Shown: piece by piece, positions 3,749 to 24,900 of the stretch
Position numbering within the stretch: position 1 is the first letter of the stretch
How the letters are laid out: every line of letters starts with the position of its first letter
Assembly (NCBI GenBank): GCA_964536295.1
Contig: CAZHVX010000005.1
Span: 1,613-27,974, forward strand
Reading direction: 5' to 3'
Length of the DNA: 26,362 nucleotides
Source of the DNA: an uncultured Pseudomonadota bacterium
Lineage (GTDB): Bacteria; UBA10199; CAZHVX01
The notes under the pieces: generated by a model
What the model was told of the DNA's origin: nothing
Database searches by the model: none
What the model saw: the letters and a program-made list of their open reading frames with translations, nothing else
Translations under genes and position numbers: made by a program

Positions 3749-3845
3749 ATCATGCCTCATGTTTCGTGTTTCATGCTTCATAAAATTAACAATGGTCGCG
3801 GCAACCGTCCGCCGGACGTTTGAAGCGCCCAAAAAGGAGGGTAAA

Positions 3846-8101: not shown

Positions 8102-8383
8102 ATGAATGAAAAGTGTTTTACAGCAAAGGAGGTCGTAGCGACCATCACCAAGTTCTTTGAAGATGACCTGGGCAAGGTAGGGCGTGTGATCGAGGTGACC
8201 AACAAGGGAAATGGTGATGGCTGGAACGCCAGAGTTGAGGCCCTGGAAGAAAGCGCCTATATGCGTTCAATGGGCCGGGGAGACATGCTGGGTGTTTACG
8301 ACGTAACGCTGGATAATAATTTAAATGTTATGACTTATTCACGAAAAAAACTCCGTGAACGGACGTCGTTGGAAGAAGAATAA
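8102..8383 (+). CDS. gvpO: GvpO-like gas vesicle protein, paralog 1.
   Basis: The C-terminal motif ...GDGWNARVEALEESAYMRSMGRGDMLGVYDVTLDNNLNVMTYSRKK matches the GvpO pattern (GW.V.VEV.ER......D..G.Y.V..D....V.GYE). It is paralogous to 14739-15005. Confidence 0.6.
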   Translation: MNEKCFTAKEVVATITKFFEDDLGKVGRVIEVTNKGNGDGWNARVEALEESAYMRSMGRGDMLGVYDVTLDNNLNVMTYSRKKLRERTSLEEE

Positions 8384-9119: not shown

Positions 9120-11309
9120 GTGGCAGACAAAAAACCAAAGAAATCGCAAAAAGGCACGACAAAAAAGAATGGCCTTCCGCTCAAGGTGGCCGAGGCCTTG
9201 AGTAAAGACGTCGGTCGCGGTATTGCCAGAATTGATCCTGCTTATATGGAAAACCTGGGCGTTTCTATCGGAGATATCGTTCAAATCGATGGGAAGCGTA
9301 AAACTGTTGCCAAGATTATGCCCACATATATGGATGACCGCGGCAAGAAGCTTATACAAATAGACGGTGTTGTCAGGGAAAATGCCAAATCTGGTCTTGA
9401 TGACAGGGTGTTTGTTGACAAGGCATCACATAATCCGGCCAGTCAAATTGTCCTGACTGCGTTGACTGCGGCTCCGGCACGTGGTGAAGATGCCCGTTAT
9501 ATTGGCAGGCTTTTCGAAGGGCTTCCTTTGGTGTCGGGCGATAGGGTAAGGGCCACACTCTTTGGTACACGCTCGCGTGATTTTAAAGTGGTCAGCACCA
9601 GCCCTGAAGGTGTGGTTTTGGTAACACCCACAACAAACATAAAGATCAAGGGTGAAAAGAAGGCTGCAGAGGAAAGGGGACCTCACGAGGTTTCATATGA
9701 AGACGTTGGAGGCTTGGGTAAGGAAATAAATAAGATTCGCGAGATGATCGAACTTCCATTACGGTATCCGCAGGTCTTTGATCGTCTGGGCATTGATCCT
9801 CCAAAGGGCGTGTTATTACACGGACCTCCAGGAACTGGAAAAACTTTAATTGCAAGGGCGGTTGCCCATGAATCGGAGGCAAACTTTTTTTCCGTTAACG
9901 GTCCTGAGATTGTGCATAAATTTTACGGTGAATCAGAGGCGCATCTTCGATCCATTTTTGAAAAGGCGGCGGAGGCGGCTCCTTCAATAATCTTTATTGA
10001 TGAAATAGATGCCATTGCGCCCAAACGTGCCGAGGTGACTGGCGATGTGGAAAAGCGCATCGTTGCTACACTTCTGGCTATGATGGACGGGCTTAAAGGT
10101 CGGGGTCAAGTCATTGTTATTGGCGCCACAAATATTCCAGATGTTATGGATCCGGCGCTTCGTCGTCCGGGCCGTTTTGATCGAGAGATTGTGATCGGTA
10201 TTCCAGACAAGAATGGCCGTGAACAAATTTTAGATATTCACACGCGAGGTATGCCACTGACCGAAGATGTCGACATTGGACATTTTGCGGCAATTACGCA
10301 TGGCTATGTTGGCGCCGATTTGGAAGCGCTTGCTCGTGAAGCAGCTATGATTTCGCTTCGTAAGGTCTTCGATAAGGTGGATTTTAATCTCGATGAAATA
10401 CCTTATGAAACATTGGTTTCTTTGGAAGTCAACATGGATTGTTTTATTCGGGCGCTCAACGAAGTTACACCCTCGGCCATACGCGAGGTCTTTGTAGAGG
10501 TTCCGGATGTTAAGTGGGAAGATGTTGGCGGTCTTGAAGATACGAAAGAGATCCTTAAAGAAACAGTGGAGTGGCCTTTAAAATATGAAAGACTTTTTGC
10601 TCATGCGAACGCCAAGGCGGCCAAAGGTATTTTGTTGGACGGCCCTCCGGGAACGGGTAAGACCTTGCTAGCAAAGGCCCTGGCCAATGAGAGTGAGGTG
10701 AACTTTATCTCCATTAAAGGACCTGAGCTCATAAGTAAATGGGTCGGCGAAAGTGAAAAGGGCGTTCGTGAAATATTCAAAAAAGCCAGACAGGCTGCTC
10801 CTTGCATTTTGTTCTTTGATGAAATCGACAGCATTGCACCAAGACGCGGTGGAGGCGAAGGAGATTCCGGTGTTACCCAAAGGGTTATAAGCCAATTTTT
10901 GACTGAACTCGACGGCCTTGAAGAGTTAAAGGGCGTGGTGATCCTGGGGGCAACCAACCGAAAAGACATCCTTGATCCAGCATTGATTCGTACCGGCAGG
11001 TTTGATTTATCAATAACACTCCCGATACCCGATTTCAAATCCAGAGAGGCAATATTCGAGGTCCATACAAGGAATAAGCCATTGGAGAAAAAGATCAATT
11101 TTAAGGAGATGGCCAGGGCAACTGAAGGTATGGTTGGGTCCGATATCGAGGAAGTGTGCCGGCAGGCTATCATGTTGGCGTTAAGAGAGTTTATCCACAA
11201 ATATGAGGATGACGCCAACAAGGAATGTGAGAAGTTCAAGGTCAAGGCCTCTCATTTTACAGAGGCATTAAAATACATAAAGAAGCAAAAAAGAGGTACA
11301 AGCCAATGA
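9120..11309 (+). CDS. Cdc48/VCP/VAT-type ATPase with two AAA domains and an N-terminal Cdc48-N domain.
   Basis: N-domain: [37 protein letters not shown]1 has Walker A GPPGTGKT, Walker B IIFIDEID and the SRH motif [14 protein letters not shown]2 has [17 protein letters not shown] and [10 protein letters not shown]. The start is GTG with AGGAG 8 nt upstream. Confidence 0.9.
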
Positions 11310-12346
11310 AATATTTTCATGGTATCATAAGTAAGGGGGAGGAAATAAATTTCGGCTCCATTGGATTTCCACTTGCGGATTTTGAAACAAAATTTGGTAA
11401 TGTATTTACAGTTCCCTATGAAAATATGGGGGCAGTAGTCAGCGACATAGACGATATGGATTTTCAAACCCCGGATAAAGAGATGTTGGTACGAAGACTT
11501 TTGGTTCATCAAAAGGTGTTGGAGCATGTTGTTAAAGAAGGTTGTGGAATTTTGCCTGTGAAATTTGGTACGTGTCTAAATGATGTCGATGAGGCCTTGA
11601 AAGTTATGAAGATTGGTTATTTTAAATTCGAAGATGCAAGCAGAAGAATGGGGAAAAAACACGAGCTGGATTTGGTGGTTACATGGGATACTAATAAGAA
11701 GCTTAAAGAGGTAGCCCTGGAAAGTCAGGAAATACAACACTTTAAGCAGAAGATTGAAAAGATGCCAGAATCTAAATCTGCCGCTGAAAAGATGAAGATA
11801 GGGATGATGCTTCAAAAAGAGCTTCATCACGTCCGGGACGGAATTTCACGTGAGATTTTGTCGACCCTGGTTGATATTACCAAGAGTCGATCGGACCACG
11901 AGCTTATGGATGATAATATGGTAATTAATTCATCTTTTCTTTTGAATGACATGGAGGAAAAGACATTTGATAAAATATTGGCTGGGCTGGATTCCAGGTT
12001 TAACGGCGAATTGAATTTTAAATGTTTAACACCACTACCACCATATAGTTTTGCTACTGTTGAAATCAAAACGATAGAATTTGAAGAAATAGAAAAGGCC
12101 TGGAACTTGTTTGATTTTGGGAAAAAGACAACACTTAATGAAATTAAGGAAGTTAATCGGAAACTAACCAAGGAATGGCATCCTGATAAAAGGCCAGGGG
12201 ATCATGAGGCCCAGATCAAATTTGAAGGCCTGAACACCTCATATAAAACACTTTTGGATTATTGTGAAAGTGGGAAGGCCTCCCTTCCCAAAAAGGGCGA
12301 GAAGTTTTTTAAAGTAAATGTCGTTAAGGCAGAGGAGATGTTATGA
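11306..12346 (+). CDS. gvpF: GvpF/GvpL-family protein fused to a C-terminal J-domain (DnaJ-type, HPD motif).
   Basis: The N-terminus and core (YFHGIIS...AVVSD..., LVHQKVLEHV, LPVKFGT, and C-terminal LNFKCLTPLPPYSF) are collinear with the GvpF paralogs at 12343 and 13201. The C-terminal 75 aa, NEIKEVNRKLTKEWHPDKRPGDHEAQIKFEGLNTSYKTLLDY, carries the J-domain HPD tripeptide. There is a 4-bp overlap with the upstream cdc48-like gene. Confidence 0.8.
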   Translation: MKYFHGIISKGEEINFGSIGFPLADFETKFGNVFTVPYENMGAVVSDIDDMDFQTPDKEMLVRRLLVHQKVLEHVVKEGCGILPVKFGTCLNDVDEALKVMKIGYFKFEDASRRMGKKHELDLVVTWDTNKKLKEVALESQEIQHFKQKIEKMPESKSAAEKMKIGMMLQKELHHVRDGISREILSTLVDITKSRSDHELMDDNMVINSSFLLNDMEEKTFDKILAGLDSRFNGELNFKCLTPLPPYSFATVEIKTIEFEEIEKAWNLFDFGKKTTLNEIKEVNRKLTKEWHPDKRPGDHEAQIKFEGLNTSYKTLLDYCESGKASLPKKGEKFFKVNVVKAEEML

Positions 12347-13092
12347 CTACAGAAGGCAAGTATATATATTGCATCATCGGAACCAGTGATCCAAGGCACT
12401 TTGGTCCCATCGGCATCGGTGAACGGAACGATGAGGTGACTACAATTGGTGCCAGGGATATCTCTGCCATTGTCAGCAATACTCCGATGGAAAAGTATGT
12501 TGTCAGTAGAGAAAATCTAACTGCCCATGAAAAGATAATTGAAAAGGTGATGTCAGAATATACGGTGTTACCCGTCCGCTTTTGTACCGTTGCTACCAGT
12601 ACGCAGGAGGTGATGGATTGCTTGAAGAGGCGTTATCCCGAGTTCAAAAACCTGCTAAGAGATATGGATAACAAGGTAGAAGTTGGTTTGAAGGTAGTTT
12701 GGAATGACATGCAAACGGTGTTCGATGAACTTGTAGCTGAAAATGATGATATAAGACAGATGAAAGAAGCTGGCAAAATAAAGAAACGTAATGATTTAAT
12801 AAATGCTGGTAAAATTGTCGAAGCCATCTTGGAAGAGAAAAGAAGTATGGAGGAGGGAAGATTATTTCGTGACTTAAAGAAGGTTGCATCAGATTTTAAG
12901 AGTGCCAAGCGACATGGTGATAATATGTTGACCAATGCTGCGTTTCTGCTCGATAAGGGACGGCAGCGAGCATTTGATAATCAAGTAGAAACTTTGGTGG
13001 AGGAGAATAAGGATCGATTTACGGTTAATTATGTCGGTCCGGCACCTCCGTTTAATTTTGTAAACATTGAGATAAAATTTGCAGGGGAATAA
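12343..13092 (+). CDS. gvpF: Gas vesicle protein GvpF/L family.
   Basis: The N-terminus KYIYCIIG... and the C-terminal VGPAPPFNFV are typical GvpF features. There is a 4-bp overlap with the upstream gene. Confidence 0.85.
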   Translation: MTTEGKYIYCIIGTSDPRHFGPIGIGERNDEVTTIGARDISAIVSNTPMEKYVVSRENLTAHEKIIEKVMSEYTVLPVRFCTVATSTQEVMDCLKRRYPEFKNLLRDMDNKVEVGLKVVWNDMQTVFDELVAENDDIRQMKEAGKIKKRNDLINAGKIVEAILEEKRSMEEGRLFRDLKKVASDFKSAKRHGDNMLTNAAFLLDKGRQRAFDNQVETLVEENKDRFTVNYVGPAPPFNFVNIEIKFAGE

Positions 13093-13200
13093 AAAGTGTA
13101 TAGGTGTATAAGTGTATGAGTTTTTAAGTTAGGAAATGAAAAATTTAGACATTTTAACTTATATACTTATACACTCAAAAACTTATACACTAGTAAAGAT
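13093..13200 (+). promoter_or_regulatory. Intergenic module 1. Forward 8-bp tandem units (GTGTATAG GTGTATAA GTGTATGA GTTTTTAA) are followed by a central AT-rich segment and then the same units in reverse orientation (CTTATATA CTTATACA CTCAAAAA CTTATACAC).
   Basis: The direct and inverted octamer arrays are seen directly. The module lies immediately upstream of the gvpF at 13201. Confidence 0.55.
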
Positions 13201-13959
13201 ATGACAGAGCTTGGACAATACATATATTGCATAATAGGGGCCGACGAACCGAAACAGTTCGAATCGATTGGAATAGACGATTCTCATCCAGAGATATATA
13301 CTGTTAATTATGAAGGCTTGGCTGCCGTGGTGAGCGATTCGCCGGTGAAGACATATCAACTCTCACGCGCCAATATGATGGCCCATCAAAAGGTCTGTGA
13401 AGAGGCAATGAAAGGACATACAGTCTTGCCGGTCAAGTTTTGTACGATTGCCGAGAAGAAAGGAATGATAGAAGAAAAGGTCTTAAAGAGACGCTATAAA
13501 GAATTTCAAAAAATGATGATAGATATGAATGGTAAAACTGAACATGGCCTTAAGATGCTTTGGATGGATATAGACAAGGTGTTTGCACAGATCGTGGAGG
13601 AAAACGAGGATATCAAGGGACTGCGTGATTCTTTAAAATGGAAGCCGCATACGAAAATTCACTACGATATGATTCATGTGGGTGAAATGGTTGAAGCGGC
13701 CCTGAAGGAAAAGAAGAAGAATTTCGTAAAGGAAATAGTTAAACCTCTTAAGTTGCTTGCTGAGGATTGCCGTGAAAATGATACTCATGGAGACAAAATG
13801 ATCATAAATGCATCTTTTCTAGTGAGTGAAGAGAATCAATCCGAATTTGATAATCGAATTGGTGAATTAGAAGCTTCTTATAAAGAGGATATAAAAATAA
13901 AATACGTAGGTCCCATTCCACCATTCAATTTTGTAGAAATTGTGGTGCATTGGGACTGA
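13201..13959 (+). CDS. gvpF: Gas vesicle protein GvpF/L family.
   Basis: QYIYCIIG..., AAVVSD, LPVKF.T and C-terminal VGPIPPFNFV are present. It is paralogous to 12343-13092. Confidence 0.85.
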   Translation: MTELGQYIYCIIGADEPKQFESIGIDDSHPEIYTVNYEGLAAVVSDSPVKTYQLSRANMMAHQKVCEEAMKGHTVLPVKFCTIAEKKGMIEEKVLKRRYKEFQKMMIDMNGKTEHGLKMLWMDIDKVFAQIVEENEDIKGLRDSLKWKPHTKIHYDMIHVGEMVEAALKEKKKNFVKEIVKPLKLLAEDCRENDTHGDKMIINASFLVSEENQSEFDNRIGELEASYKEDIKIKYVGPIPPFNFVEIVVHWD

Positions 13960-14061
13960 TGGGAGTGTATGAGTATATGAGTGCATAAGTACATAAGCAT
14001 ATAAGTTGAAGTGATTGAAATTTCTATAATCTAATTTAGAAACTTATACACTGAGGTTAAT
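13960..14061 (+). promoter_or_regulatory. Intergenic module 2. An octamer array (GTGTATGA GTATATGA GTGCATAA GTACATAA GCATATAA) is followed by the conserved core AGTTGAAGTGATTGAAATTTCTATAATCTAATTTAGAAACTTATACAC, which contains a perfect TATAAT at 14025-14030. Candidate gvpG promoter or operator.
   Basis: The ~48-bp core is ~90% identical to 17126-17173. TATAAT is present. The -35 is ambiguous: TTGAAG sits 13 bp upstream. Confidence 0.55.
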
Positions 14062-14427
14062 ATGGGTTTAATATTAAACATACTGGGGGCACCGATAGCG
14101 GGGCCAATTAGGTTCTTACAGTGGACGGCCGAAAAGGTAAATGAAACCGTTCATAAAGAAAGGACTGACAAATCTAAGATCCAGGCGGAACTTCTATCGC
14201 TCCAGATGCGCATGGAAATGGATGATATTACCGAAGAAGAATTTACAAAGAGAGAAGATGAACTTCTGGCGCGATTAGATGAAATTAATAAAATCGAAAC
14301 AGGTGAACCAATAGAAAAGAAAACAAAAAAGAAAAGGGGGGCTTATGCCAAAGAAAAGAAAGCTGGGCAGGTCGATCAGCAAAAAGAAGAAAACGACAAA
14401 GAAAGTGACGAAGAAGAAGACGTTTAA
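14062..14427 (+). CDS. gvpG: Gas vesicle protein GvpG, with an acidic/basic low-complexity C-terminal extension.
   Basis: The N-terminus MGLILNILGAPIAGPIRFLQWTAEKV..., followed by EEEF..RE.EL...L, is the conserved GvpG pattern. The last ~35 aa come from purine-rich low-complexity DNA that is also read in another frame by the 14345 ORF. Confidence 0.75.
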   Translation: MGLILNILGAPIAGPIRFLQWTAEKVNETVHKERTDKSKIQAELLSLQMRMEMDDITEEEFTKREDELLARLDEINKIETGEPIEKKTKKKRGAYAKEKKAGQVDQQKEENDKESDEEEDV

Positions 14428-14716
14428 GAAAGCAGCAAAGAAAAAGACAGCGAAGAAGGCGACAAAGAAGACAACAAAGAAGACGACAAAGAAGACAACG
14501 GCAAAGAAAAAGACAGCTAAGAAGGCGACAAAGAAGACAACCAAGAAGAAAGCGGCAAAGAAAAAAACAGCTAAGAGAAAAGACAAAGCCACTTTACTAA
14601 AAGTAGAAAAGAGGCAGGTCCTTTCAGAAATTCAGGCATTACGTGAAAAGTTAAGAAAAGCACGTGCTAAGAATATTAAGCAAAGACAAACAGATTTTAC
14701 TAAATACACACGCTGA
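14345..14716 (+). CDS. Lysine-rich, histone-H1-like basic protein with K-K-T/A-T/A-K-K repeats. Candidate DNA- or surface-binding protein. It overlaps the 3' end of gvpG in the +1 frame.
   Basis: An independent RBS-like run AAAAGGGGGG sits 5 nt before ATG 14345. The protein MPKKRKLG...KKTTKKVTKKKTFKKAAKKKTAKKATKKTTKKTTKK... has a non-repetitive C-terminal 40 aa (LLKVEKRQVLSEIQALREKLRKARAKN), which suggests real coding. Low-complexity DNA gives open frames easily, so caution is needed. Confidence 0.45.
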   Translation: MPKKRKLGRSISKKKKTTKKVTKKKTFKKAAKKKTAKKATKKTTKKTTKKTTAKKKTAKKATKKTTKKKAAKKKTAKRKDKATLLKVEKRQVLSEIQALREKLRKARAKNIKQRQTDFTKYTR

Positions 14717-14738
14717 AACGCAAAGGGAGGTGAGCCTT

Positions 14739-15005
14739 ATGGCCGATTTATCAAAAGCAAAAGAAAAGATAGGTCAGTTTTTCACTGACGAACTCAAGAA
14801 GGATAAGGATGCTCTCAAGTTCCTAGAGGTTACTAAAACAGATGCCGGTTGGTGTGGAAGGGTAGAAGTGGCCGAGAGAAACATCTATCTTAAGAAAATG
14901 GGTTTTCCCAATGTGCTCGACAAAAATACGTACAACGTTCAGTTAGATCCCAGTCTTAACGTTATTGGGTACAAGCAGGAAGGCAACGAAAAAGAAGAAG
15001 AATAA
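14739..15005 (+). CDS. gvpO: GvpO-like gas vesicle protein, paralog 2.
   Basis: The RBS AAGGGAGGTG precedes ATG 14739. The motif DAGWCGRVEVAERNIYLKKMGFPNVLDKNTYNVQLDPSLNVIGYKQ parallels 8102-8383 and the GvpO pattern. The ORF-track start at 14664 lacks an RBS. Confidence 0.6.
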   Translation: MADLSKAKEKIGQFFTDELKKDKDALKFLEVTKTDAGWCGRVEVAERNIYLKKMGFPNVLDKNTYNVQLDPSLNVIGYKQEGNEKEEE

Positions 15006-15112
15006 AACGTAGAATCGCGGTGCCCCCCGATGTGTAGGGTGCGCCATGCGCCCTTTGACAAGGAAGCAAATAAAGGCAGCTTCTTTGTTAAAGCGCCCAT
15101 GAAAGGTGATTT

Positions 15113-17089
15113 ATGGAGAATAAAAAATCTCCATCCTTTTTGACTAATGGTCAAAAAAGACTGATATTTTTTGGTGGCAAAGGCGGCGTGGGTAAAACCA
15201 CCACCGCCGCCGCGTCAGCCATTTTTATAGCCAGGCAATTTCCTCAAAAAAAGGTTCTTGTTCTCTCCACCGATCCCGCACATTCCTTGTCCGATTGTTT
15301 TGAGATATTGCTTAATGATGAGGTTTCTTCGATAAATGGGTTGTCGAACCTCTTTGCTAGAGAATTAGATGCTGCTCGTTTATTAGATGCGTTCAAAGAT
15401 AAGAATGAAAAGATTATCAAGGTGTTGGCCGAAAGGGGAACCTATTTTGATAATGAGGATATTGAAAGTTTCTTTTCTTTATCACTCCCCGGTATGGATG
15501 AAGTAATGGCGGTTATAGAGATATATAATCTTTTTGTAAAAGGTGAGTATGAAACGATTATTATCGATACCGCGCCTACCGGCCATACTATGAGACTGCT
15601 TTTACTTCCTAACCAACTGGAGCAATGGATAGATCTTTTTAACTTGATGCAAGAAAAGCATCGGATCATGACTCGCCGTTTTTCCGGAAGATATGCGCCT
15701 GATGAGGCAGATAAATTTCTTGAAGATTTGACTCATGACCTGAAAGAAATGAGGAGCCTGCTTTCCAATCCTGCTATTACGGAGTTTGTTCCAATCACCA
15801 TCCCTGAGAAAATGAGCTTTAATGAAACGTGTAGACTTCTTGGGGTCTTGAGAGATTGTCATATGCCGGTAAGGAATATTATTGTTAACAACGTGATAAA
15901 GTCTGAGTCTTGTGAATATTGCCAAAAACAATATGAGGCACAAAAATCTGCCATAGAAAAAATCAGGAATTTATTTAAAGATTTTAATATAATGCACATG
16001 CCGCTATATCCGAAGGAGGTGCGGGGAGTCAATGCGCTCAGCGAATTTGCAGGCAGTTTAGTGGGTGAAGAAGTAAACTTTCAAGGGATGGTTCATAGGT
16101 CCAAAAGGAGTGATGGTGATCAACGTATCAAACTTGAACGTTTTCTAAACGACGATTTACAGATGTTGCTTGTTGGAGGCAAAGGAGGAGTTGGAAAGAC
16201 ATCAATTGCAACTGCACTTGCATTAAAGTTTTCCGGGAAATATCCAGATAAAAAAGTCTTACTTTTTTCTACCGATCCTGCCCATTCCTTGTCGGATAGC
16301 CTTGGGCAAGAAATAGGGAATAAAGTAACACAAGTCCAGGCAAGGCCTCTTGCTTCAAATTTATTTGCCATCGAAATCAATGCTGAAAAACTATTTGATG
16401 ATTTCGCAAAAAAATACAAAAGAGAAATAGATGATGTATTTGATGGTTTTTTCAATAGCTCATCTACAGCGGGAATGGATTTTAGCTACGATCGAAGTCT
16501 GATGAAAAAACTTATAAACGTATCGCCTCCTGGACTGGATGAATTGATGGCCTTAAAGGAAATCATGAATTACATAGATAAAGATACATACGATTTCTAC
16601 ATCTTGGATACCGCTCCAACTGGGCATTTGCTACGTTTTTTGGAGCTGCCTTCATTGGTACAAGGCTGGCTGAAGGCAATCTTTAGGCTTTTGATTAAAT
16701 ATGAAGGTATGGTGAATTTGAACAGTGTGGCAGAAAAGATGGTGGAACTTTCAAAGAGTGTAAAGCGGATCAAGGCGATCCTTTGCGATTCCAAAAGGGC
16801 CAAATTTCTTGCAGTTACTATTCCTGAAGCAATGGGGTTTGAAGAGACAAAAAGGCTTGTGGATTCACTTCACAATTTGGATATAGCGTGCACGGGTCTT
16901 GTCATTAATAAAATTTTCCCCAGTGTAAAGTGTGGCTTTTGTGGAATAAAAAGGGACGAACAATTAGAATATGCTAAAAAGATAGAGAAGAAACTTAATA
17001 TAAAACATGTTGCCCGCGTACCTCTGTTTCCATCAGAGATCGTGGGGGTTGAAAAATTAACAAAGTTTGGAGACAGAGCTTTTTATTAG
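15113..17089 (+). CDS. Fused tandem ArsA/Get3-family ATPase (two complete ArsA-like halves).
   Basis: There are two deviant Walker A P-loops (GGKGGVGKTTTAA and GGKGGVGKTSIAT). There are two STDPAHSLSD motifs. Two A-loop or signature motifs, DTAPTGHT(M/L)R(L/F)L, are present. The fused-dimer architecture is typical of ArsA and Get3 anion-pump or tail-anchored targeting ATPases. Confidence 0.85.
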   Translation: MENKKSPSFLTNGQKRLIFFGGKGGVGKTTTAAASAIFIARQFPQKKVLVLSTDPAHSLSDCFEILLNDEVSSINGLSNLFARELDAARLLDAFKDKNEKIIKVLAERGTYFDNEDIESFFSLSLPGMDEVMAVIEIYNLFVKGEYETIIIDTAPTGHTMRLLLLPNQLEQWIDLFNLMQEKHRIMTRRFSGRYAPDEADKFLEDLTHDLKEMRSLLSNPAITEFVPITIPEKMSFNETCRLLGVLRDCHMPVRNIIVNNVIKSESCEYCQKQYEAQKSAIEKIRNLFKDFNIMHMPLYPKEVRGVNALSEFAGSLVGEEVNFQGMVHRSKRSDGDQRIKLERFLNDDLQMLLVGGKGGVGKTSIATALALKFSGKYPDKKVLLFSTDPAHSLSDSLGQEIGNKVTQVQARPLASNLFAIEINAEKLFDDFAKKYKREIDDVFDGFFNSSSTAGMDFSYDRSLMKKLINVSPPGLDELMALKEIMNYIDKDTYDFYILDTAPTGHLLRFLELPSLVQGWLKAIFRLLIKYEGMVNLNSVAEKMVELSKSVKRIKAILCDSKRAKFLAVTIPEAMGFEETKRLVDSLHNLDIACTGLVINKIFPSVKCGFCGIKRDEQLEYAKKIEKKLNIKHVARVPLFPSEIVGVEKLTKFGDRAFY

Positions 17090-17214
17090 TGCAAAAGTGT
17101 TTAAGTGTATAAGTGTATGAGTATATAAGTGTAGAAGTTGAAGTAATTGAAATTTCTATAATCTAACTTAAAAACTCATACACTTAAACACTTATGGACT
17201 TAAGGGAGGTATTT
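17090..17214 (+). promoter_or_regulatory. Intergenic module 3. An octamer array (GTGTTTAA GTGTATAA GTGTATGA GTATATAA GTGTAGAA) is followed by the conserved core AGTTGAAGTAATTGAAATTTCTATAATCTAACTTAAAAACTCATACAC, with TATAAT at 17156-17161, and then reverse octamers. Candidate gvpJ-K-L promoter or operator.
   Basis: The core is near-identical to module 2. It sits immediately upstream of gvpJ. Confidence 0.55.
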
Positions 17215-17571
17215 ATGACATTAGAAGCCAGGCGAGAAGGGTCAGATAGCCTTGCCGATGCAATCGATCGTATATTGGATAAGGGATTAATTATTAATGC
17301 CGATATTCAGGTATCTTTGGCAGGCGTGGAGCTCTTAGGAATAAAGATACGTGCGGCGCTGGCGTCCTTTGAGACGGCGGCCAAGTATGGCCTGGAATTT
17401 CCGTCAGGTACATCTATCGAAGGACCTGCTTGGGAAGAAGCAAAGATACCAAAGGAAGCATGCCCGCAGTGTGAAAAGCGCGTGCCAACTGAGCATCTTA
17501 TGAATGGAGGTTGTCCGTGGTGTGGTTGGATTAGCGCAAAGGCACTTAAAGCAACACCTGAGGCTAAGTGA
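17215..17571 (+). CDS. gvpJ: Gas vesicle protein GvpJ (GvpA-family core with a C-terminal Cys-rich extension).
   Basis: The segment [49 protein letters not shown] is the GvpA/J/M-family core. The RBS AAGGGAGGT precedes ATG 17215. The C-terminal CPQC...CPWC forms a putative Zn-ribbon. Confidence 0.85.
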   Translation: MTLEARREGSDSLADAIDRILDKGLIINADIQVSLAGVELLGIKIRAALASFETAAKYGLEFPSGTSIEGPAWEEAKIPKEACPQCEKRVPTEHLMNGGCPWCGWISAKALKATPEAK

Positions 17572-17885
17572 TGCCAATAAATATAGATGAAAAAAATCTA
17601 AAGCATGGTCTCTTAGGTTTGGTGCTAGCCTTGGTGGAAATCATAAGAGATACGTTAAAGATCCAGGCTACAAAAAGAATGGATGGAAAAAGTCTTACCG
17701 AGGAAGAGATCGAACGGTTAGGGCGGGCCTTGATGGAGTTGGATGTGGCCATCGAACAAATGAAGGAAGACCAAGGCGTTTCTGAGGCAGTAGCTTCCGT
17801 CCGTGACGGACTGGACGACATTGTTAATGATGCAATTCATACAATTATTAATCCAGTTGAAGGGAGGCAAATTGATAAATCCTAA
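17568..17885 (+). CDS. gvpK: Gas vesicle protein GvpK.
   Basis: The motif LKHGLLGLVLALVEIIRDTLKIQATKRMDGKSLTEEEIERLGRAL is the conserved GvpK pattern. There is a 4-bp overlap with gvpJ. Confidence 0.85.
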   Translation: MMPINIDEKNLKHGLLGLVLALVEIIRDTLKIQATKRMDGKSLTEEEIERLGRALMELDVAIEQMKEDQGVSEAVASVRDGLDDIVNDAIHTIINPVEGRQIDKS

Positions 17886-18651
17886 AGTTGCAAAATATCT
17901 CTATTGTATTGTCGACGCGAGTGAAGAGGTTAATTTGGGCAACGTTGGTATTGAAAGAGGTGAGGTTTATACAATTGTTTACAAAGATATCGCAGCAATA
18001 GCGCACGATTGTCATCCTGAGCCTTATCAATCGGATGATAAGCAGGTGGTAGAGAGCTGGGTCAAATCTCATCAAGCGGTCATTGATCTATGCTGGGAGC
18101 GATTTGGTACAATACTGCCTTTTGGATTCGATACCATAATCCAGGGGAGTGAAGAAAGAAATCCTCTTGAAAACACAAAAAAATGGATTAGCGATGATCA
18201 TGATAAGTTAAAGGGACAAATTGAGAAGCTTCGTGGAAAGGCGGAATATGGGATTCAGATTTCCTGGGATCCAAAAATTATCATAAATGAATTTTGCAAA
18301 ACCAACAAAGAGATTAAAGCCTTGGAAAAAGAGATATCTACAAAATTAGAAGGTGCGGCATATATGTATAGGCAAAAGCTGGAGGGGTTGTTTCGCAGCG
18401 AATTGGAGAAAAAGGCAAATGAGTTTTTTAAAGAAGCATTCGATAATTTTAAGGTCTATCTGAAAGATGTCAAAGTAGAAAAGGTCAAGAAAATGGATGA
18501 CGGTAGGCAGATGCTGATGAACCTTTCGTGTCTTTTAGAAAAGGGTGAAACTAAAGATCTTGGGGACGAATTGGAGAAAATTGATAAGCGGGAAGGCTTC
18601 TTTGTGAAATTTACCGGCCCATGGCCACCTTATTCTTTCGTAAGTGCATAA
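17872..18651 (+). CDS. gvpL: Gas vesicle protein GvpL/GvpF family.
   Basis: The N-terminus AKYLYCIVD... and the C-terminal FTGPWPPYSFV are GvpF/L hallmarks. The start is taken as TTG 17872, preceded by GAAGGGAGG 5 nt upstream. The ATG at 17803 is an alternative in-frame start that would overlap gvpK by 83 nt. Confidence 0.75.
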   Translation: MINPKVAKYLYCIVDASEEVNLGNVGIERGEVYTIVYKDIAAIAHDCHPEPYQSDDKQVVESWVKSHQAVIDLCWERFGTILPFGFDTIIQGSEERNPLENTKKWISDDHDKLKGQIEKLRGKAEYGIQISWDPKIIINEFCKTNKEIKALEKEISTKLEGAAYMYRQKLEGLFRSELEKKANEFFKEAFDNFKVYLKDVKVEKVKKMDDGRQMLMNLSCLLEKGETKDLGDELEKIDKREGFFVKFTGPWPPYSFVSA

Positions 18652-18682
18652 GTGTATGAGTGTATGAGTTGGAGAGTTGAAT
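18640..18682 (+). promoter_or_regulatory. Intergenic module 4 (short): GTGCATAA GTGTATGA GTGTATGA GTTGGAGA octamer units upstream of the four-helix-bundle gene.
   Basis: The GTGTATRA unit family is the same as in modules 1 to 3. Confidence 0.45.
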
Positions 18683-19048
18683 ATGAAAATAGAGAGATTT
18701 GAAGAATTAGATTGCTGGAAGGCAGCACGGGAACTAGTGACAATAGTTTACAAACTTACACGAGAGAAAATGTTTAGTAGGGATTTTGGATTGAGGGATC
18801 AAATTCAAAAAGCTGCTATTTCAACAATGGCAAATATCGCCGAGGGGTTTGCTGCCAATTCGGATAGGGAATTCATTAGATTCCTAGGATATGCAAGTCG
18901 TTCTGCTATTGAAGTTCAATCACATTTATATGCTACCCTCGATTTAGAATATATAGAGCATGATCAATTTGATAAGGCCTTCAATAAGGCTCAAGATTGT
19001 ACAAATTTATGTAGAGGTTTAATTCGATATTTAAAAACAAAAACTTAA
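18683..19048 (+). CDS. Four-helix-bundle protein of the '23S rRNA intervening-sequence / S23 ribosomal protein' family.
   Basis: The protein MKIERFEELDCWKAARELVTIVYKLTREK...RDQIQKAAISTMANIAEGFAANSDREFIRFLGYASRSAIEVQSHLY is the characteristic pattern of this small, widely scattered family (..W..A..L...IY.LT..FP..E...L..QL.RAA.SI..NIAEG....S..E...FL..A.GS..E....L). The assignment is motif-based. Confidence 0.6.
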   Translation: MKIERFEELDCWKAARELVTIVYKLTREKMFSRDFGLRDQIQKAAISTMANIAEGFAANSDREFIRFLGYASRSAIEVQSHLYATLDLEYIEHDQFDKAFNKAQDCTNLCRGLIRYLKTKT

Positions 19049-19096
19049 AAACAAAAACTTATGGACTTATAAACTTATACACTCATACACTTATTT
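19049..19096 (+). promoter_or_regulatory. Intergenic module 5: reverse-orientation octamers (ACTTATGG ACTTATAA ACTTATAC ACTCATAC ACTTATTT) directly abutting the gvpM start.
   Basis: These are the reverse complement of the GTGTATRA family. There is no RBS between the module and ATG 19097. Confidence 0.45.
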
Positions 19097-19369
19097 ATGG
19101 AACCAACAAGAAACGGTAGAGCGACATTAGTAGACCTTCTTGACAGGGTGTTGGACAAGGGGTTGGTTATCAACGCCGATATCATCATCTCCTTGGCCGG
19201 TGTGCCCTTAATTGGCGTGAACTTGCGGGCAGCGCTGGCGGGCATGGAGACTATGGTTAAATATGGAATGATGCGCGATTATGATCTCAAGTCACGCAAG
19301 TGGGAGAGCGAAAAACGTCGCGAAGAAGAAAAAAAGAAAATAACACCACAGCCATTGGTGCAAAAGTAA
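19097..19369 (+). CDS. gvpM: Gas vesicle protein GvpM/GvpJ-type (GvpA family).
   Basis: The segment TLVDLLDRVLDKGLVINADIIISLAGVPLIGVNLRAALAGMETMVKYGMM is the GvpA-family core. The C-terminal tail is basic and acidic. Confidence 0.8.
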   Translation: MEPTRNGRATLVDLLDRVLDKGLVINADIIISLAGVPLIGVNLRAALAGMETMVKYGMMRDYDLKSRKWESEKRREEEKKKITPQPLVQK

Positions 19370-19568: not shown

Positions 19569-19952
19569 ATGGCGAGGATTCCTTCAAAAAGTGGGCTGGA
19601 TACATTAAAGGTGCGCAGGGAGCCAAGGCTCGTTAATAACGAACCGGTCCTTTTGTGGCAACAAGGTTCTTACGATTGCGGCAGCTCCTTATCGTCAAGC
19701 TGGAAGCTGGGATTTATATGCTTAACAAAGAATAACATATACTTCCTCCAGGGAAAGCGATGTGTCCTGGAGATAGACTCTCAGCAGATAAGAGAAATTA
19801 CTATTCTAAAAAGAAGTTGGGTCTTGGGGAAGGTGATTGATCAATTGTTTATTAGGATCGTAGACGCAATACAAAGGACAAAGAAATATTACTTTGGTGT
19901 CGATAAACCTGAAAGGTGGAAAGAGGCAATCGAGGGGGTAATAGATGGCTAA
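19569..19952 (+). CDS. Bacterial PH/GRAM-like domain protein, translationally coupled to the DnaK-like gene by an 8-bp overlap.
   Basis: The segment PVLLWQQGSYDCG...WKLGFICLTKNNIYFL resembles the N-terminal PH/GRAM-like module of 21678-22550 (EKVILKSKGGLNDG..WRMGEICLTNERLLFL). It is shared by two proteins flanking dnaK. Confidence 0.5.
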   Translation: MARIPSKSGLDTLKVRREPRLVNNEPVLLWQQGSYDCGSSLSSSWKLGFICLTKNNIYFLQGKRCVLEIDSQQIREITILKRSWVLGKVIDQLFIRIVDAIQRTKKYYFGVDKPERWKEAIEGVIDG

Positions 19953-21681
19953 AGTCATAGGTATAGACCTAGGGACAACGTATTCAGTAATGGCTTACTT
20001 GGATAACGGTAAGGCGAAGATCATCCCTAACGCCGAAAAAGAGCACCTAACTCCTTCTGTGGTGGGCTTTGATGCCTTGGAACACGCCTTTGTTGGGGAT
20101 CTTGCCAGGCGCCAATCTGCCATTCATCCCGATCGAACGGTTGCATCCATCAAACGAAAGATGGGAACTAACCATCGTGTAAAAATAGGATCGAAAGAAT
20201 ATTCGCCTCAAGAAATCTCGGCGTTTATACTCAAAAAACTAAAAAGGGATGCAGAAAAATATCTTGGCGACGAAGTCAAGCAAGCTGTGATTACAGTTCC
20301 AGCATATTTTAACGATTCACAACGTCAAGCTACCAAAGATGCAGGAAAGATTGCAGGGCTAGAAGTGCTGCGTATAATCAACGAACCAACGGCAGCATCA
20401 TTGGCTTATGGTCTTGGCCACGGCGGAACACAAACCGTTTTGGTGTGGGACTTAGGAGGTGGAACATTTGATGTTTCCATACTGGAAATTGGCGAAGGGG
20501 TGTTCGAAGTTAAATCAACTTGTGGAAATACACAGTTGGGTGGTGACGATTGGACGGAACGGATTGCCGATTTTGCCATAAAAGAATTTGAATCGAAACA
20601 TGGCGCCTTTCCCAAAGATAACCTGATTGCAATGCAAAGGGTAATAAATGCTGCGGAAGAGGTCAAAATAAAAATTTCTCATGCAAGGGAAGTGAATATA
20701 AACGTACCGTTCATATCTAACAATGGAGATAAACCAGAGCATTTGGATTGTAATCTTTCCAGAGAAGTTTATGAAGACTTTACCGCTGATCTTTTGGAGA
20801 AGCTGATTGGTCCTACCAGGCGAGCTTTAGAAGATGCCGGGCTTACGCCGGAAAAAATAAACCACGCGGTTTTGGTTGGCGGCTCTACCAGGATGCCTGC
20901 GGTTCAAGCTAAAGTCGCTGAACTGATGAGCAAACAGCCTTTTAAAGGTGTAAACCCAGATGAGGTGGTTGCCATTGGTGCGGCAATTCAGGCCGGGGTC
21001 TTAACCGGAGAGGTGACCGATGTAGTCTTGGTGGACGTTGTTCCACTTTCATTAGGGATTGAGACACTCGGCGGTATATTTGCCAAAATAATGAGTCGCA
21101 ATACCACCGTTCCTACTTCCAAGAGCCAGATATTTACAACTTCGGCAGACAATCAAATCGAAGTCGATATCCACATCCTTCAAGGTGAACGTGAGCTGGT
21201 TGCAAATAATACTTCATTAGGCAATTTTAAACTGGTGGACGTTTCACCTGAAGCTCGGGGCGTTCCTAAAATTGAAGTGACCTTTGATGTTGATGCCGAT
21301 GGTATTCTAAGCGTTTCTGCAAAAGATCTATATACAGAGAATGAACAACGAATTCAAATTAGCTCACCAACGGCATTATCTTCTGAAGAAGTGGAACAAA
21401 TGGTTACGGAAGCCAAGTCACATGCCGAAGATGATCGCAAAAAACGAGAGGAAATAGAACTTACTATCAAGGCAGACAATGTTGTTTATGCCGCATTGGA
21501 AACAATGGAAGAAAAAGGCGATTTGTTTGACAAGGTTGAATTGAAACAGGCAAATACGTTGGTGAATAAAATAAAAGCAGCCTTGAAAGAAAACAACTGC
21601 GAACCTTTACCAAGTTTGATGGAAGAGTTAAGGGTGTTGATGGAAACCGTGTGCAACAAAAAAACTAAGGAAAAGGTATGA
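19945..21681 (+). CDS. dnaK: Hsp70/DnaK-family chaperone, a short paralog of 578 aa.
   Basis: The Hsp70 signature motifs IGIDLGTTYS, DLGGGTFDVS and VVLVDVVPLSLGIETLGG (substrate-binding domain) are present. It lacks roughly 50 to 60 C-terminal residues, including the lid end, compared with canonical DnaK. Confidence 0.9.
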   Translation: MAKVIGIDLGTTYSVMAYLDNGKAKIIPNAEKEHLTPSVVGFDALEHAFVGDLARRQSAIHPDRTVASIKRKMGTNHRVKIGSKEYSPQEISAFILKKLKRDAEKYLGDEVKQAVITVPAYFNDSQRQATKDAGKIAGLEVLRIINEPTAASLAYGLGHGGTQTVLVWDLGGGTFDVSILEIGEGVFEVKSTCGNTQLGGDDWTERIADFAIKEFESKHGAFPKDNLIAMQRVINAAEEVKIKISHAREVNINVPFISNNGDKPEHLDCNLSREVYEDFTADLLEKLIGPTRRALEDAGLTPEKINHAVLVGGSTRMPAVQAKVAELMSKQPFKGVNPDEVVAIGAAIQAGVLTGEVTDVVLVDVVPLSLGIETLGGIFAKIMSRNTTVPTSKSQIFTTSADNQIEVDIHILQGERELVANNTSLGNFKLVDVSPEARGVPKIEVTFDVDADGILSVSAKDLYTENEQRIQISSPTALSSEEVEQMVTEAKSHAEDDRKKREEIELTIKADNVVYAALETMEEKGDLFDKVELKQANTLVNKIKAALKENNCEPLPSLMEELRVLMETVCNKKTKEKV

Positions 21682-22550
21682 AAAAAGTAGCATTAAATCC
21701 CAATGAAAAAGTAATCCTCAAAAGCAAAGGCGGCCTAAACGATGGTAGTCAGTCACGTTGGCGAATGGGAGAAATTTGTCTTACAAACGAGAGGCTTTTA
21801 TTTCTCCAACCCTTTGGAATTACTTGTGAAATAGCATTATCCTCGATGGACGAAGTGGGTGTGGAGAAAAAGGACTATGCCTTCGGTCAGAAAAATGCGT
21901 TGTTCTTGAAATATAAGCACAATAATGAGGGCAATGATAAGCATGGCACAATTTGGGTAGTTACGCCAGAGCTGGATAGGTGGAAGGAAAAGCTTTGTGG
22001 TTGGATGCTGATTCAAGTGACTGAAGAAGATTTGGGCAAGGTCTGTGAAAAATTAGATCCGGACTCGGAACGAATTGTTTGGCACTTTTGGGAGGTATCG
22101 CACGCTCGCATCGATGAGCTGGCAACTCTCATTGGTGCTTCGGCGCATATGGATGTGCTCATAAAGATAAGGAACGAGATCAACAAGGTTGCCAGTGAAA
22201 TATTAGGATATCCGTTATTGACATTTGATGTATCCAAAAAAGATCCGGAAACCGAAAAGGATGTTACCTATAGTTGGTGGCTGATAGGCCGTGGCGGTAG
22301 GACAATATCCAAAGAGACTTTTTGCGATGTGTTTGACGAGGGAAAACAATTGGTGGTGGTGGTTGAATTGCTTGGCGTTGATGATAAAGACCTCGATCTT
22401 CAAATAGATCAAAAACGTATTCGGATCAACAATTCAAGTAATGGGAATTGTGAAAAGGAGGTATTCTTGCCCGTCGAAATTGTAGTCGATAAGATCCAGC
22501 AACGTTTTAATAATGGGATTTTGGAAATCAGGGCAACAAAAAGGGGCTGA
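21678..22550 (+). CDS. Two-domain protein: an N-terminal bacterial PH/GRAM-like domain and a C-terminal Hsp20/alpha-crystallin-like domain.
   Basis: The N-terminus parallels 19569-19952. The C-terminal segment QLVVVVELLGVDDKDLDLQIDQKRIRINN...VFLPVEIVVDKIQQRFNNGILEIRATK resembles an alpha-crystallin beta-sandwich. There is a 4-bp overlap with dnaK. Confidence 0.55.
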   Translation: MKKVALNPNEKVILKSKGGLNDGSQSRWRMGEICLTNERLLFLQPFGITCEIALSSMDEVGVEKKDYAFGQKNALFLKYKHNNEGNDKHGTIWVVTPELDRWKEKLCGWMLIQVTEEDLGKVCEKLDPDSERIVWHFWEVSHARIDELATLIGASAHMDVLIKIRNEINKVASEILGYPLLTFDVSKKDPETEKDVTYSWWLIGRGGRTISKETFCDVFDEGKQLVVVVELLGVDDKDLDLQIDQKRIRINNSSNGNCEKEVFLPVEIVVDKIQQRFNNGILEIRATKRG

Positions 22551-22657: not shown

Positions 22658-23380
22658 ATGAAAGATTATTACGAAATATTGGAGGTGCATCCACGAGCTA
22701 GCCAGGAGGTTATCAAAAAGGCCTATCTGGTTTTGTCCAAGCGTTATCACCCGGATGCCCATGACAGTGAAAGGGCTGGCTGGGCCGAGGAAAAGTTCAA
22801 GGTGATAAATGAGGCCTTTCAGACATTGGGTGATTTAGTTAAGCGCAAGGGGTATGATTTGGATCGAGAGGGTAGCGATGATTATGAATACTGCGAGGAA
22901 GAAGAAGTTGAAATCGATGAGAAGGCATATTTTCACTATCGCTTAGGGTTAGATCATTTTGAAAAAACGGATAAAAGAAGATTCATGTCGGTATTGCTGG
23001 GTAGTTGGCAACGAAACTTGAAGTTGGCTCAAAAATATTTTTTAAAGGTTGTTCGTACATTCCCTACTAGTTATTATACTGACCAATCTCAGTATCATTA
23101 TATAGTATGCTTGATGCGTGAGTATGATTACTCAGAAAAACATGCACAATTGGTAGAAAAAGAGACAGAAATGTTTTTAAAATGTTATCCGGAAAGTGAA
23201 TGTAGAGACATTTTTTACTATCAACTAGGTCAGTTTTATTTGTTAAAGCGACAAGACTATAATAAAGCCATTGAAAACTTGAAGCTATTTTTGGCAGCCT
23301 GTCCTGAATCCTCTAATGCAAAGGATGCAAGATGTTTGCTAAAGTATACTATCAGTCGTCAGTCATCAGCTGACAGCTGA
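22658..23380 (+). CDS. J-domain protein (N-terminal DnaJ J-domain with HPD motif) with a C-terminal helical, TPR-like region.
   Basis: The segment DYYEILEVHPRASQEVIKKAYLVLSKRYHPDAH...KFKVINEAFQTLGD is a canonical J-domain. The remainder is helical with Y/L/K-rich repeats resembling TPR. Confidence 0.75.
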   Translation: MKDYYEILEVHPRASQEVIKKAYLVLSKRYHPDAHDSERAGWAEEKFKVINEAFQTLGDLVKRKGYDLDREGSDDYEYCEEEEVEIDEKAYFHYRLGLDHFEKTDKRRFMSVLLGSWQRNLKLAQKYFLKVVRTFPTSYYTDQSQYHYIVCLMREYDYSEKHAQLVEKETEMFLKCYPESECRDIFYYQLGQFYLLKRQDYNKAIENLKLFLAACPESSNAKDARCLLKYTISRQSSADS

Positions 23381-24778: not shown

Positions 24779-24789
24779 TTCTTTTGAAT

Positions 24790-24892: not shown

Positions 24893-24900
24893 TTCAAAAA

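Follow-up and report, generated by a model that had tools for sequence, protein, structure and literature searches.

A tandem Get3-like ATPase embedded in a bacterial gas-vesicle gene cluster as a candidate chaperone of gas-vesicle biogenesis

Why should an ATPase of the ArsA/Get3 family be encoded in the midst of gas-vesicle (gvp) genes? The question is raised by a stretch of 26,362 nucleotides from contig CAZHVX010000005.1 of an uncultured Pseudomonadota bacterium (the window), which up to about 23.4 kb is occupied by a single co-directional gvp cluster. Within this cluster of roughly 23 kb lies the gene for a tandem ATPase (15113-17089). A reading made earlier from the DNA letters (the sequence-only reading) had recognised a fused-dimer ArsA/Get3 ATPase inside a gvp operon and had proposed that it targets gas-vesicle proteins. 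The first part is borne out by two Pfam ArsA_ATPase domains and by a gvp content that comprises gvpA, two gvpN, four gvpF/L, gvpG, gvpK, gvpJ and gvpM. The identity of the protein as Get3-like, with a role other than arsenic transport, is well supported.

The ATPase has 658 amino acids. Its open reading frame (ORF) begins, as read directly from the sequence, with an ATG at 15113 behind a Shine-Dalgarno sequence (AGGTGA, 15104-15109, plus strand); a scan for promoters and terminators around the gene returned no more sites than shuffled sequence. Pfam ArsA_ATPase (PF02374) is matched at residues 16-317 and again in the C-terminal half (E 7.8e-150). The P-loop, STDPAHSLSD and DTAPTGH motifs are duplicated and intact in both halves, as the sequence-only reading had stated, the pairs starting at residues 22/356 (GKGGVGKT), 54/388 (DPAHS) and 152/499 (DTAPTGH). 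The motifs of the P-loop, of switch I and of switch II in both halves are invariant in a family alignment of 67 relatives of the ATPase (alignment A2), which is the basis of the conservation figures given here and of the structure model. Because these catalytic motifs, the adenine-recognition asparagine (N259/N599) and the P-x-E-(I/V)-x-G segment are all retained in both halves, both nucleotide sites look functional. The closest match in a collection of 5.8 billion proteins is at most 51% identical, and the named relatives belong to Zixibacteria, Desulfobacterales, Syntrophales, Chloroflexi and one metagenome-assembled genome of Pseudomonadota.

Profile and pairwise comparisons separate the ATPase from ArsA, the ATPase of the arsenite pump. 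It exceeds the cutoff of the superfamily model TIGR00345 (GET3_arsA_TRC40; 488 bits vs 135) over two stretches, and fails the ArsA equivalog TIGR04291 (249 bits vs 650) and the haloarchaeal ArsA model NF041417 (259 vs 800). Neither the Get3d model NF050088 (92 vs 325) nor the ParA_partition (53 vs 180) and MinD (35 vs 213) models are passed. Among PDB sequences the best match is the fused Get3 homologue ArsA1 of Chlamydomonas reinhardtii (268 bits); a single half scores 175 bits against yeast Get3 (E 1.9e-50), 167 against archaeal Get3 and 151 against human TRC40, and the whole protein reaches only 116 bits against E. coli ArsA. In pairwise BLAST, the N half gives 164 bits with yeast Get3 (34% identity) and 155 with its own C half. 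A plasmid-borne Citrobacter protein encoded in an arsRDABC operon was taken as the reference for a genuine ArsA; its two halves yield 90 and 56 bits with the N half, and the ATPase as a whole is only 24% identical to it.

The metalloid-binding cysteines of ArsA are also absent. In the comparison with Citrobacter ArsA, C113 corresponds to F121 and C422 to P472 of the ATPase; around C172 the sequences diverge and align poorly, and the ATPase has no cysteine between residues 62 and 240 (its cysteines are at 62, 240, 249, 267, 270, 558, 593, 607 and 610). The sequence-only reading had held that no arsB, arsC, arsD or arsR lies nearby, and none came to light: tblastn searches of the window with ArsR, ArsD, ArsB and ArsC of the Citrobacter arsRDABC operon gave no match at a cutoff as lax as E<=10, the main plus-strand ORFs of the window include no ars gene according to Pfam, and ArsR, ArsD, ArsB and ArsC are absent from every fetched homologue locus except the Citrobacter ars reference. 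Acr3, which was not searched with a query of its own, gave no Pfam match in the window. The source contig, of 27,974 bp, extends at most about 1.6 kb beyond the window. The sequence-only reading had named placement within arsenite-pump ArsA, with conserved metalloid-binding cysteines, or arsenic genes just outside the window, as results that would speak against it; the ATPase is instead closer to Get3 than to ArsA and lacks these cysteines, and no ars gene was found.

In a quick neighbour-joining tree of single domains, for which yeast Get3 and one ArsA were the only references, all first domains group together, as do all second domains; yeast Get3 falls among single-domain bacterial relatives that are not linked to gvp genes, and ArsA lies outside. 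The ATPase resembles a gvp-linked protein of Nostoc N half to N half (194 bits) and C half to C half (145 bits). This similarity indicates a single ancient fusion, which would predate the split between CxxC-bearing gvp-linked proteins and a cyanobacterial group that lacks CxxC. Between the halves of the ATPase and those of ArsA there is no such N-to-N and C-to-C correspondence, which suggests that the ArsA fusion arose independently.

Features typical of Get3 are found in both halves. When the halves are aligned, C267xxC270 coincides with the zinc-clasp CxxC of Get3 and C607xxC610 takes the equivalent position in the C half; all four cysteines are conserved in at least 90% of the 67 relatives, and C270 is invariant. 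In the TRC40-insert region (Get3 helices 7-9) the N half differs from yeast Get3 by a gap of only one residue and the C half is seven residues shorter; the same region has gaps of 13 and 26 residues in the N and C halves of ArsA. The sequence-only reading had proposed looking for a hydrophobic, Met-rich client groove, and alignment and family conservation both speak in its favour. The yeast Get3 residues that we take, from the mutational literature, to form the groove were mapped onto both halves and onto the family alignment. At the 19 aligned positions 90-100% of relatives have a hydrophobic residue, which for most positions applies to both halves; the i/i+3/i+4/i+7 hydrophobic pattern of the Get3 groove is retained and is rich in methionine and tryptophan. 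W172, W519, M132, M179 and Y530 are identical in 67/67 sequences and M169 in 65/67. Conservation at the level of identity is unusual for a generic groove that binds transmembrane (TM) domains, and would fit a single, highly conserved ligand: the groove identities are kept, and GvpA is itself 86% identical between the window and Nostoc.

The AlphaFold2 model of the ATPase (pLDDT 84.7, pTM 0.83) contains long helices at residues 156-191 and 198-217 in the N half and at 503-531 and 537-558 in the C half. In Foldseek searches of the PDB, the whole chain finds closed two-domain ArsA first (9nbw and 9nbo; TMq 0.70-0.71, 21-22% identity), with a TMq of 0.61 for open ArsA. The top rank of ArsA in this search reflects the fact that, apart from C. 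reinhardtii ArsA1, ArsA structures are the only two-domain chains of the fold. Searched singly, each half matches complexes of Get3 with tail-anchored (TA) proteins (4xwo, 4xtr, 4xvu) and archaeal TRC40, with TMt 0.79-0.84, a root-mean-square deviation (rmsd) of 3.1-5.0 Å and 32-34% identity; on 4xwo the two halves give a TMt of 0.83 at 3.1-3.3 Å.

The association with gvp genes is shared by the relatives of the ATPase. All four close homologues that were sampled on long contigs have their place in a gvp cluster, either between gvpG-gvpO and gvpJ, as in the window, or distally, after DnaK. The best match among 72,556 plasmids is an ArsA-family gene in the gvpAACNJK...FL cluster, of the classical cyanobacterial kind, of Nostoc sphaeroides p4, where a CDC48-like AAA ATPase follows it. 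A metagenome scan that was seeded with P-loops only and ranked only by similarity to the query yielded 80 loci, which were scored for gvp genes by tblastn with the Gvp proteins of the window where the flank was at least 4 kb. At least two gvp families accompany 51 of the 54 relatives with a best-domain identity of at least 36%, and 35 of the 36 fused two-domain forms. Relatives below 36% identity provide an internal control: at least two gvp families are present in four of 12 loci, and the other eight have no gvp gene. Altogether 55 metagenomic loci combine at least two gvp families with a flank of at least 4 kb. The linkage of this clade of ATPases to gvp genes is near-obligate; a tandem CxxC-bearing relative at locus L044 is not beside gvp genes.

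The gene shifts its place within gvp clusters, yet remains inside them. A fused version is usually preceded by gvpF/L or gvpG(-gvpO) and followed by gvpJ/M, and some clusters (L002, L010) hold two fused paralogues. Single-domain, CxxC-bearing versions of about 312 amino acids are present in gvp clusters as well, and the order Hsp20, single-domain Get3-like protein, CDC48 recurs in 12 loci. Among the 43 gvp-linked loci with a flank of at least 8 kb, 30 carry a CDC48-type ATPase and 28 an Hsp20.

The protein can be set beside several known systems. With yeast Get3/TRC40 it shares the P-loop, the switches, CxxC, the insert and the hydrophobic periodicity of the groove helices, one half being 34% identical; yeast Get3 is a homodimer, whereas the two domains are fused here, and the presumed destination is a protein shell and not a membrane. 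Homologues of the GET receptor, of Sgt2 and of Get4/5 were not recognised in Pfam scans. ArsA of the E. coli R773 type is likewise a single chain of two domains with the same fold, DTAPTGH in both halves and a similar closed-state arrangement (TMq 0.70), but the identity is 20-24%, and the ATPase lacks metalloid cysteines and ars partners and has the insert that is missing in ArsA. C. reinhardtii ArsA1 (PDB 5zme/5zmf) is a tandem Get3-like protein with a groove. It differs in being eukaryotic and organelle-related, in having no CxxC in the aligned region and in its domain arrangement, which superposes with an rmsd of about 16 Å. It is reportedly implicated in TA targeting to chloroplasts. Get3d/NostocGet3 (PMC10248533; NF050088) is a bacterial Get3 fold tied to small heat-shock proteins (sHsp), genes for which are neighbours here and not fused; the ATPase is tandem rather than single-domain, and Pfam finds no HSP20 (alpha-crystallin) domain in it. 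Fusions of alpha-crystallin with Get3 are known from another bacterial Get3 group (PMC6593721).

The gvp association is not new, having been in print since 2010 (PMC2963123; PMC5464585). Castillo & Saier (2010) described two-domain ArsA homologues (Clusters 4 and 6) in gvp clusters of four phyla, with hosts among Chlorobi/Bacteroidetes, Geobacter uraniireducens, cyanobacteria and an acidobacterium, the listed carriers including Nostoc/Anabaena PCC 7120, Geobacter uraniireducens Rf4 and Pelodictyon luteolum; neither ars partners nor C113/C172/C422 were present, and the authors proposed only that the ATPase ‘energizes a biogenic step’ distinct from GvpN, with no discussion of Get3, TA proteins or a client groove (PMC2963123). 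The ATPase of the window resembles these proteins of about 640 amino acids in its two domains, its place within a gvpFGJKLMNO(+hsp20) set and its lack of ars genes and ArsA cysteines. That study drew on a handful of genomes; the present set comprises 55 metagenomic loci and includes single-domain gvp-linked forms. In a phylogenetic-profile study of 2017, a cyanobacterial ArsA co-evolves and groups with eight Gvp proteins (PMC5464585). Farkas et al. (2019) described tandem Get3 homologues of bacteria in which both domains carry the insert and which, except in cyanobacteria, have a CxxC; their function was called ‘unclear’, TA targeting or general chaperoning was considered, and gas vesicles were not mentioned (PMC6593721). 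The Get1/Get2/Get4-binding residues are given as ‘No’ for Group 8 in their Table 1 (PMC6593721). A double Get3 domain, insert, groove and CxxC in both domains and the lack of Get1/2/4-binding residues, the marks of Group 8, are all present in the ATPase; the cyanobacterial Group 7 is the CxxC-less sister group, with which it would share the one ancient fusion.

The ATPase is thus a divergent new member of a class that is already known under two names, and the value of the present analysis lies in joining two separate literatures and in a much larger set of loci, not in the discovery of a kind. Literature searches uniting gas vesicles with Get3 or tail-anchored targeting, or with arsenite/anion-transporting ATPase names, brought up nothing relevant, and the idea that unites the two literatures, a Get3-type groove chaperone devoted to gas vesicles, does not appear in the searchable literature.

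What the ATPase does in gas-vesicle biogenesis may be framed as a dedicated, ATP-regulated holdase or hand-over chaperone of the Get3 type, an account that is the best supported one and stands about an even chance of being right. From the features above we infer a client and a mechanism, including zinc binding, groove formation, the identity of the client, the direction of hand-over and cooperation with neighbouring chaperones. The single chain would act as a pseudo-dimer of two Get3-like domains. When closed with ATP bound, it would bring its helical subdomains together into one hydrophobic groove to which both contribute, and the two CxxC pairs would supply a Get3-type Zn(Cys)4 clasp that links the halves. 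A hydrophobic stretch of some gas-vesicle protein would be sheltered in this groove, most likely the core of a GvpA-family member (GvpA, GvpJ or GvpM) and possibly hydrophobic helices of GvpG or GvpK, and would be retained there pending its transfer to the growing shell. The partners of the ATPase in this work would be Hsp20, DnaK with a GvpF/L protein fused to a J-domain, and a CDC48-type unfoldase. Over 17 residues, the Kyte-Doolittle maxima are 2.12 for GvpM, 1.71 for GvpK, 1.62 for the N-terminal helix of GvpG and 1.50 for GvpJ.

Several observations weigh against such a chaperone. TA proteins and other classic Get3 clients were not found in the cluster; hydrophobicity among the Gvp proteins peaks in the beta-hairpin cores of GvpM and GvpJ and in helices of GvpK and GvpG, and not in C-terminal TM helices. 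The gas-vesicle wall is a protein shell and not a lipid bilayer, and Get3-style insertion into it would be without precedent. The acidic DELYED patch through which Get3 binds Get1/2 is replaced by RNLFKD in the N half and by KKLNIK in the C half, so that the ATPase has no known receptor interface. The N-half lid region holds polar residues (K182, R184, D197 and D200, all invariant, and H183 in 64/67), unlike a generic hydrophobic lid. The longest homologues (739-794 amino acids) contain only insertions in the ArsA domain and no Rosetta-stone fusion to a Gvp or other domain. To our knowledge, heterologous gvp sets from Anabaena flos-aquae, B. megaterium and Serratia work without such a gene, so that the ATPase would be accessory at most. 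Of the proposal in the sequence-only reading, then, the Get3-like, non-arsenic and gvp-embedded identity stands; the targeting of GvpA, GvpJ or GvpM is put forward conditionally, for a cluster without a TA protein and an ATPase in which the receptor motif is not conserved.

Rival accounts were weighed against the dedicated chaperone. The ATPase may drive or regulate another step, by positioning or spacing vesicles in the manner of ParA/MinD or by nucleotide-dependent scaffolding or gating of assembly with GvpN, without being a chaperone of hydrophobic clients. Get3/ArsA and ParA/MinD are both of the SIMIBI class, weak ParA, CbiA and MinD matches are seen in the ATPase, the only role suggested by Castillo & Saier was to energize a step distinct from GvpN (PMC2963123), and the invariant polar lid residues suggest that a specific contact with another protein, and not a greasy groove, is formed there. 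This account is nevertheless quite unlikely: the Get3-specific helical subdomain, which is missing in ParA/MinD, is strongly conserved in both halves with its insert and hydrophobic pattern, the structural matches of the halves are Get3-TA complexes, and the immediate neighbours are chaperones (Hsp20, CDC48) or the hydrophobic GvpJ/M.

The ATPase could also be a general chaperone or targeting factor, for TA or other membrane proteins or as a stress- or redox-activated holdase like oxidised Get3, that is merely co-regulated with gvp genes and has no Gvp-specific client. In Get3 the CxxC cysteines underlie a redox-switched holdase activity, which would agree with this account, and chaperones of a general type (DnaK, DnaJ, Hsp20, CDC48) abound in the cluster. 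Bacterial Get3 homologues with the insert may be general chaperones according to Farkas et al. (PMC6593721), and some tandem CxxC-bearing relatives, the L044 protein and Myxococcus Mxa1 (PMC2963123), are not beside gvp genes. A linkage maintained in 51/54 loci (35/36 for fused forms) despite shuffled gene order would be unexpected for a housekeeping factor, and the identity-level conservation of the groove fits a conserved, dedicated ligand such as the GvpA compared above, so this account is improbable too. There is next to no chance that the protein is a genuine arsenite/antimonite pump ATPase that came to lie in a gvp cluster by accident. Its two-domain architecture, the ArsA structures that head the whole-chain Foldseek search and database names such as ‘arsenite-transporting ATPase’ among its homologues would suit a pump; the equivalog scores, the missing metalloid cysteines, the low identity to operon ArsA, the failure to find ArsR, ArsD, ArsB or ArsC in the window and in homologue loci (the Citrobacter reference excepted) and the fact that a TRC40-insert is present are all against it. 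Four independent tests, of the equivalog score, the cysteines, the ars partners and the insert, reject the pump reading, which is effectively refuted.

If the dedicated Get3-type chaperone is accepted, a wider scheme may be sketched, which is somewhat doubtful and offered tentatively. In a complete and private proteostasis pathway, the Get3-type ATPase would deliver a client that is no membrane protein, the extremely hydrophobic and extremely conserved GvpA-family fold, to a protein shell at the gas-water interface, with Hsp70, the J-domain-GvpF/L protein and sHsp acting upstream, and CDC48 would serve to remove subunits, from collapsed vesicles for instance, or to recycle them. Such a pathway, if real, would be the counterpart in bacteria, as to function, of the eukaryotic Hsp70-to-Get3 relay with Cdc48/Msp1-type extraction, and would define the first client class for any bacterial Get3 homologue. 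How hydrophobic GvpA stays soluble and enters the growing vesicle is an open question in the field; a 2024 interaction study assigned a chaperone-like role for GvpA to GvpF/GvpG, with no such ATPase involved (PMC11445434). For part of that task the ATPase is a testable candidate; a function would at the same time be given to the tandem CxxC-bearing bacterial Get3 homologues (PMC6593721). The matter may bear on engineering as well, since proteotoxic stress sets a limit to the expression of gas vesicles in foreign hosts (PMC12848028).

Table 1. Features of the gvp cluster and of the tandem ATPase, with nucleotide positions in the window
Feature	Position	Strand	Remarks
Tandem (pseudo-dimeric) Get3/ArsA-family ATPase, 658 aa	15113-17089	+	Pfam PF02374 x2, TIGR00345
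P-loop 1 GGKGGVGKT, residues 21-29	15173-15199	+	invariant across 67-sequence alignment A2
Switch I 1 STDPAHSLSD, residues 52-61	15266-15295	+	D54 equivalent to catalytic D57 of Get3
Switch II 1 DTAPTGH, residues 152-158	15566-15586	+	motif search, alignment A2
N-half long helices, residues 156-217	15578-15763	+	correspond to Get3 helices 7-9 including TRC40-insert
CxxC 1 C267-E-Y-C270	15911-15922	+	aligns with NCKRCQ CxxC of yeast Get3
P-loop 2 GGKGGVGKT, residues 355-363	16175-16201	+	motif search, alignment A2
Switch I 2 STDPAHSLSD, residues 386-395	16268-16297	+	motif search, alignment A2
Switch II 2 DTAPTGH, residues 499-505	16607-16627	+	motif search, alignment A2
C-half groove helices, residues 503-558	16619-16786	+	insert 7 residues shorter than N half; W519, Y530 invariant
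CxxC 2 C607-G-F-C610	16931-16942	+	same place in C half as CxxC 1
Groove pairs, N half/C half			F94/F431, F121/I468, M128/L475, V131/L478, M132/M479, L165/L512, M(L)169/V516, W172/W519, I173/L520, F176/I523, M179/L526, M186, F190/Y530, L203/M543, L206/L546, L210/V550, M213/I553
gvpA (major shell protein)	330-545 (full), 1-70 (partial second copy)	+	86% identical to Nostoc GvpA
Repeat protein	1377-2369	+	three 132-nt tandem repeats at 1677-2098
Two DnaJ-type zinc-finger proteins	2440-3215 (2440-2754, 2751-3215)	+	
Two gvpN paralogues	3759-4766, 5110-6063	+	
Third zinc-finger protein	6525-6923	+	
gvpO (clear)	8102-8383	+	
Hsp20	8547-9110	+	
CDC48-type double AAA+ ATPase	9120-11309	+	CDC48/VAT-type, TIGR01243 952 bits; directly after Hsp20
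GvpF/L fused to J-domain	11306-12346	+	Pfam GvpL_GvpF + DnaJ; J-domain C-terminal
Two further gvpF/L	12343-13092, 13201-13959	+	
gvpG	14062-14427	+	
GvpO-like paralogue, directly upstream of ATPase	14664-15005	+	likely start ATG 14739
gvpJ (GvpA family), downstream of ATPase	17194-17571	+	PF00741 E 1.8e-16; best NCBIfam is halo GvpJ
gvpK	17568-17885	+	
gvpF/L	17803-18651	+	
gvpM	19097-19369	+	
DnaK	19945-21681	+	distal end of cluster
bPH/Hsp20-like protein	21678-22550	+	distal end of cluster
DnaJ-TPR protein	22658-23380	+	distal end of cluster

The immediate flanks of the ATPase gene had been called gvpO and gvpJ in the sequence-only reading. The gvpJ call holds; its likelier start is the ATG at 17215, behind AGGGAGG, and the protein ends in a C-terminal four-cysteine segment (CPQC...CPWC). 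The gvpO call is a weak one, yet it concerns a paralogue of the clear GvpO of the cluster: the upstream protein has a Pfam GvpO match below the cutoff (E 0.0035) and 38% identity to the clear GvpO (E 6e-12), and the label GvpO-like is used on account of these two similarities. A homologue of this gene sits directly 5′ of the ATPase gene in L001, and BLASTP of the protein against the GvpO of L003 gave no alignment. The gap between gvpG and the GvpO-like gene is filled by a lysine-rich repeat ORF (14345-14716; KKTAKKATKKTTKK...), which is out of frame with gvpG, overlaps its 3′ end and includes tandem repeats of 12/15 nt at 14386-14583; a histone-H1-like protein, an extension of gvpG and non-coding sequence are all candidates for it.

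Three genes of the cluster constitute an Hsp70 system, namely the GvpF/L-J-domain fusion, a full DnaK and the J-domain-TPR protein. The fusion is found in related clusters as well (L002, L003, L005 and L006), and its conservation implies recruitment of DnaK to a protein that binds GvpA. For the CDC48-type unfoldase, extraction or recycling of shell protein is one possible role in a gas-vesicle cluster. Right after CDC48, one to three small two-TM LiaF-TM-like proteins are encoded in L002 (2734-3628) and L003 (5718-5894); they are the sole membrane-like small proteins seen in these clusters and have no counterpart in the window.

Two products flanking DnaK (19569-19952 and 21678-22550) have in common a sub-threshold N-terminal domain that resembles bacterial PH/GRAM, and one of them ends in an Hsp20-like part. 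In L006 (4542-5660) a GRAM-like region, a faint match in precomputed Pfam data, is fused to a GvpA-family protein, which gives a hint that components of the gas vesicle are bound by a PH-like module.

The three small zinc-finger proteins are made of DnaJ-type CxxCxGxG repeats. Cysteine motifs of the zinc type are unusually frequent in the cluster, occurring in these proteins, in the CPQC...CPWC segment of GvpJ and in the two CxxC of the ATPase. The two tandem gvpA copies are 96% identical at their 3′ ends, and the repeat protein downstream of them, which has no Pfam match, may be a GvpC-like repeat protein. Between gvpF/L and gvpM lies a gene for a ‘23S rRNA intervening-sequence protein’ (18677-19048; four-helix bundle, PF05635, E 1e-29), which has copies of a palindromic element on either side and looks like a passenger.

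This palindromic element, of about 110 nt and built from 8-nt units ((A/G)AGTGTAT...), is repeated in five or more intergenic spacers of the gvp cluster, with copies in either orientation (17085-17205, 13088-13200 in reverse, 13960-14075, 18630-18705 and 19050-19100). The copy at 17085-17205 begins at the stop codon of the ATPase gene and overlaps the first ATG of gvpJ. As RNA the element would form a long hairpin (-39.4 kcal/mol, z -6.6), and it could be a REP/MITE-like element or a signal for mRNA processing or stability. A second dispersed repeat, of 56 nt (CGCGGATCTAACGCCGATCTGCTACACGGATC..., 71-93% identity), is found between genes at 4981-5036, 6410-6465 and 24790-24845. Its last copy covers the annotated, TTG-initiated N-terminus of an aminotransferase ORF (24784-26070), and the true start of that gene is therefore probably further downstream.

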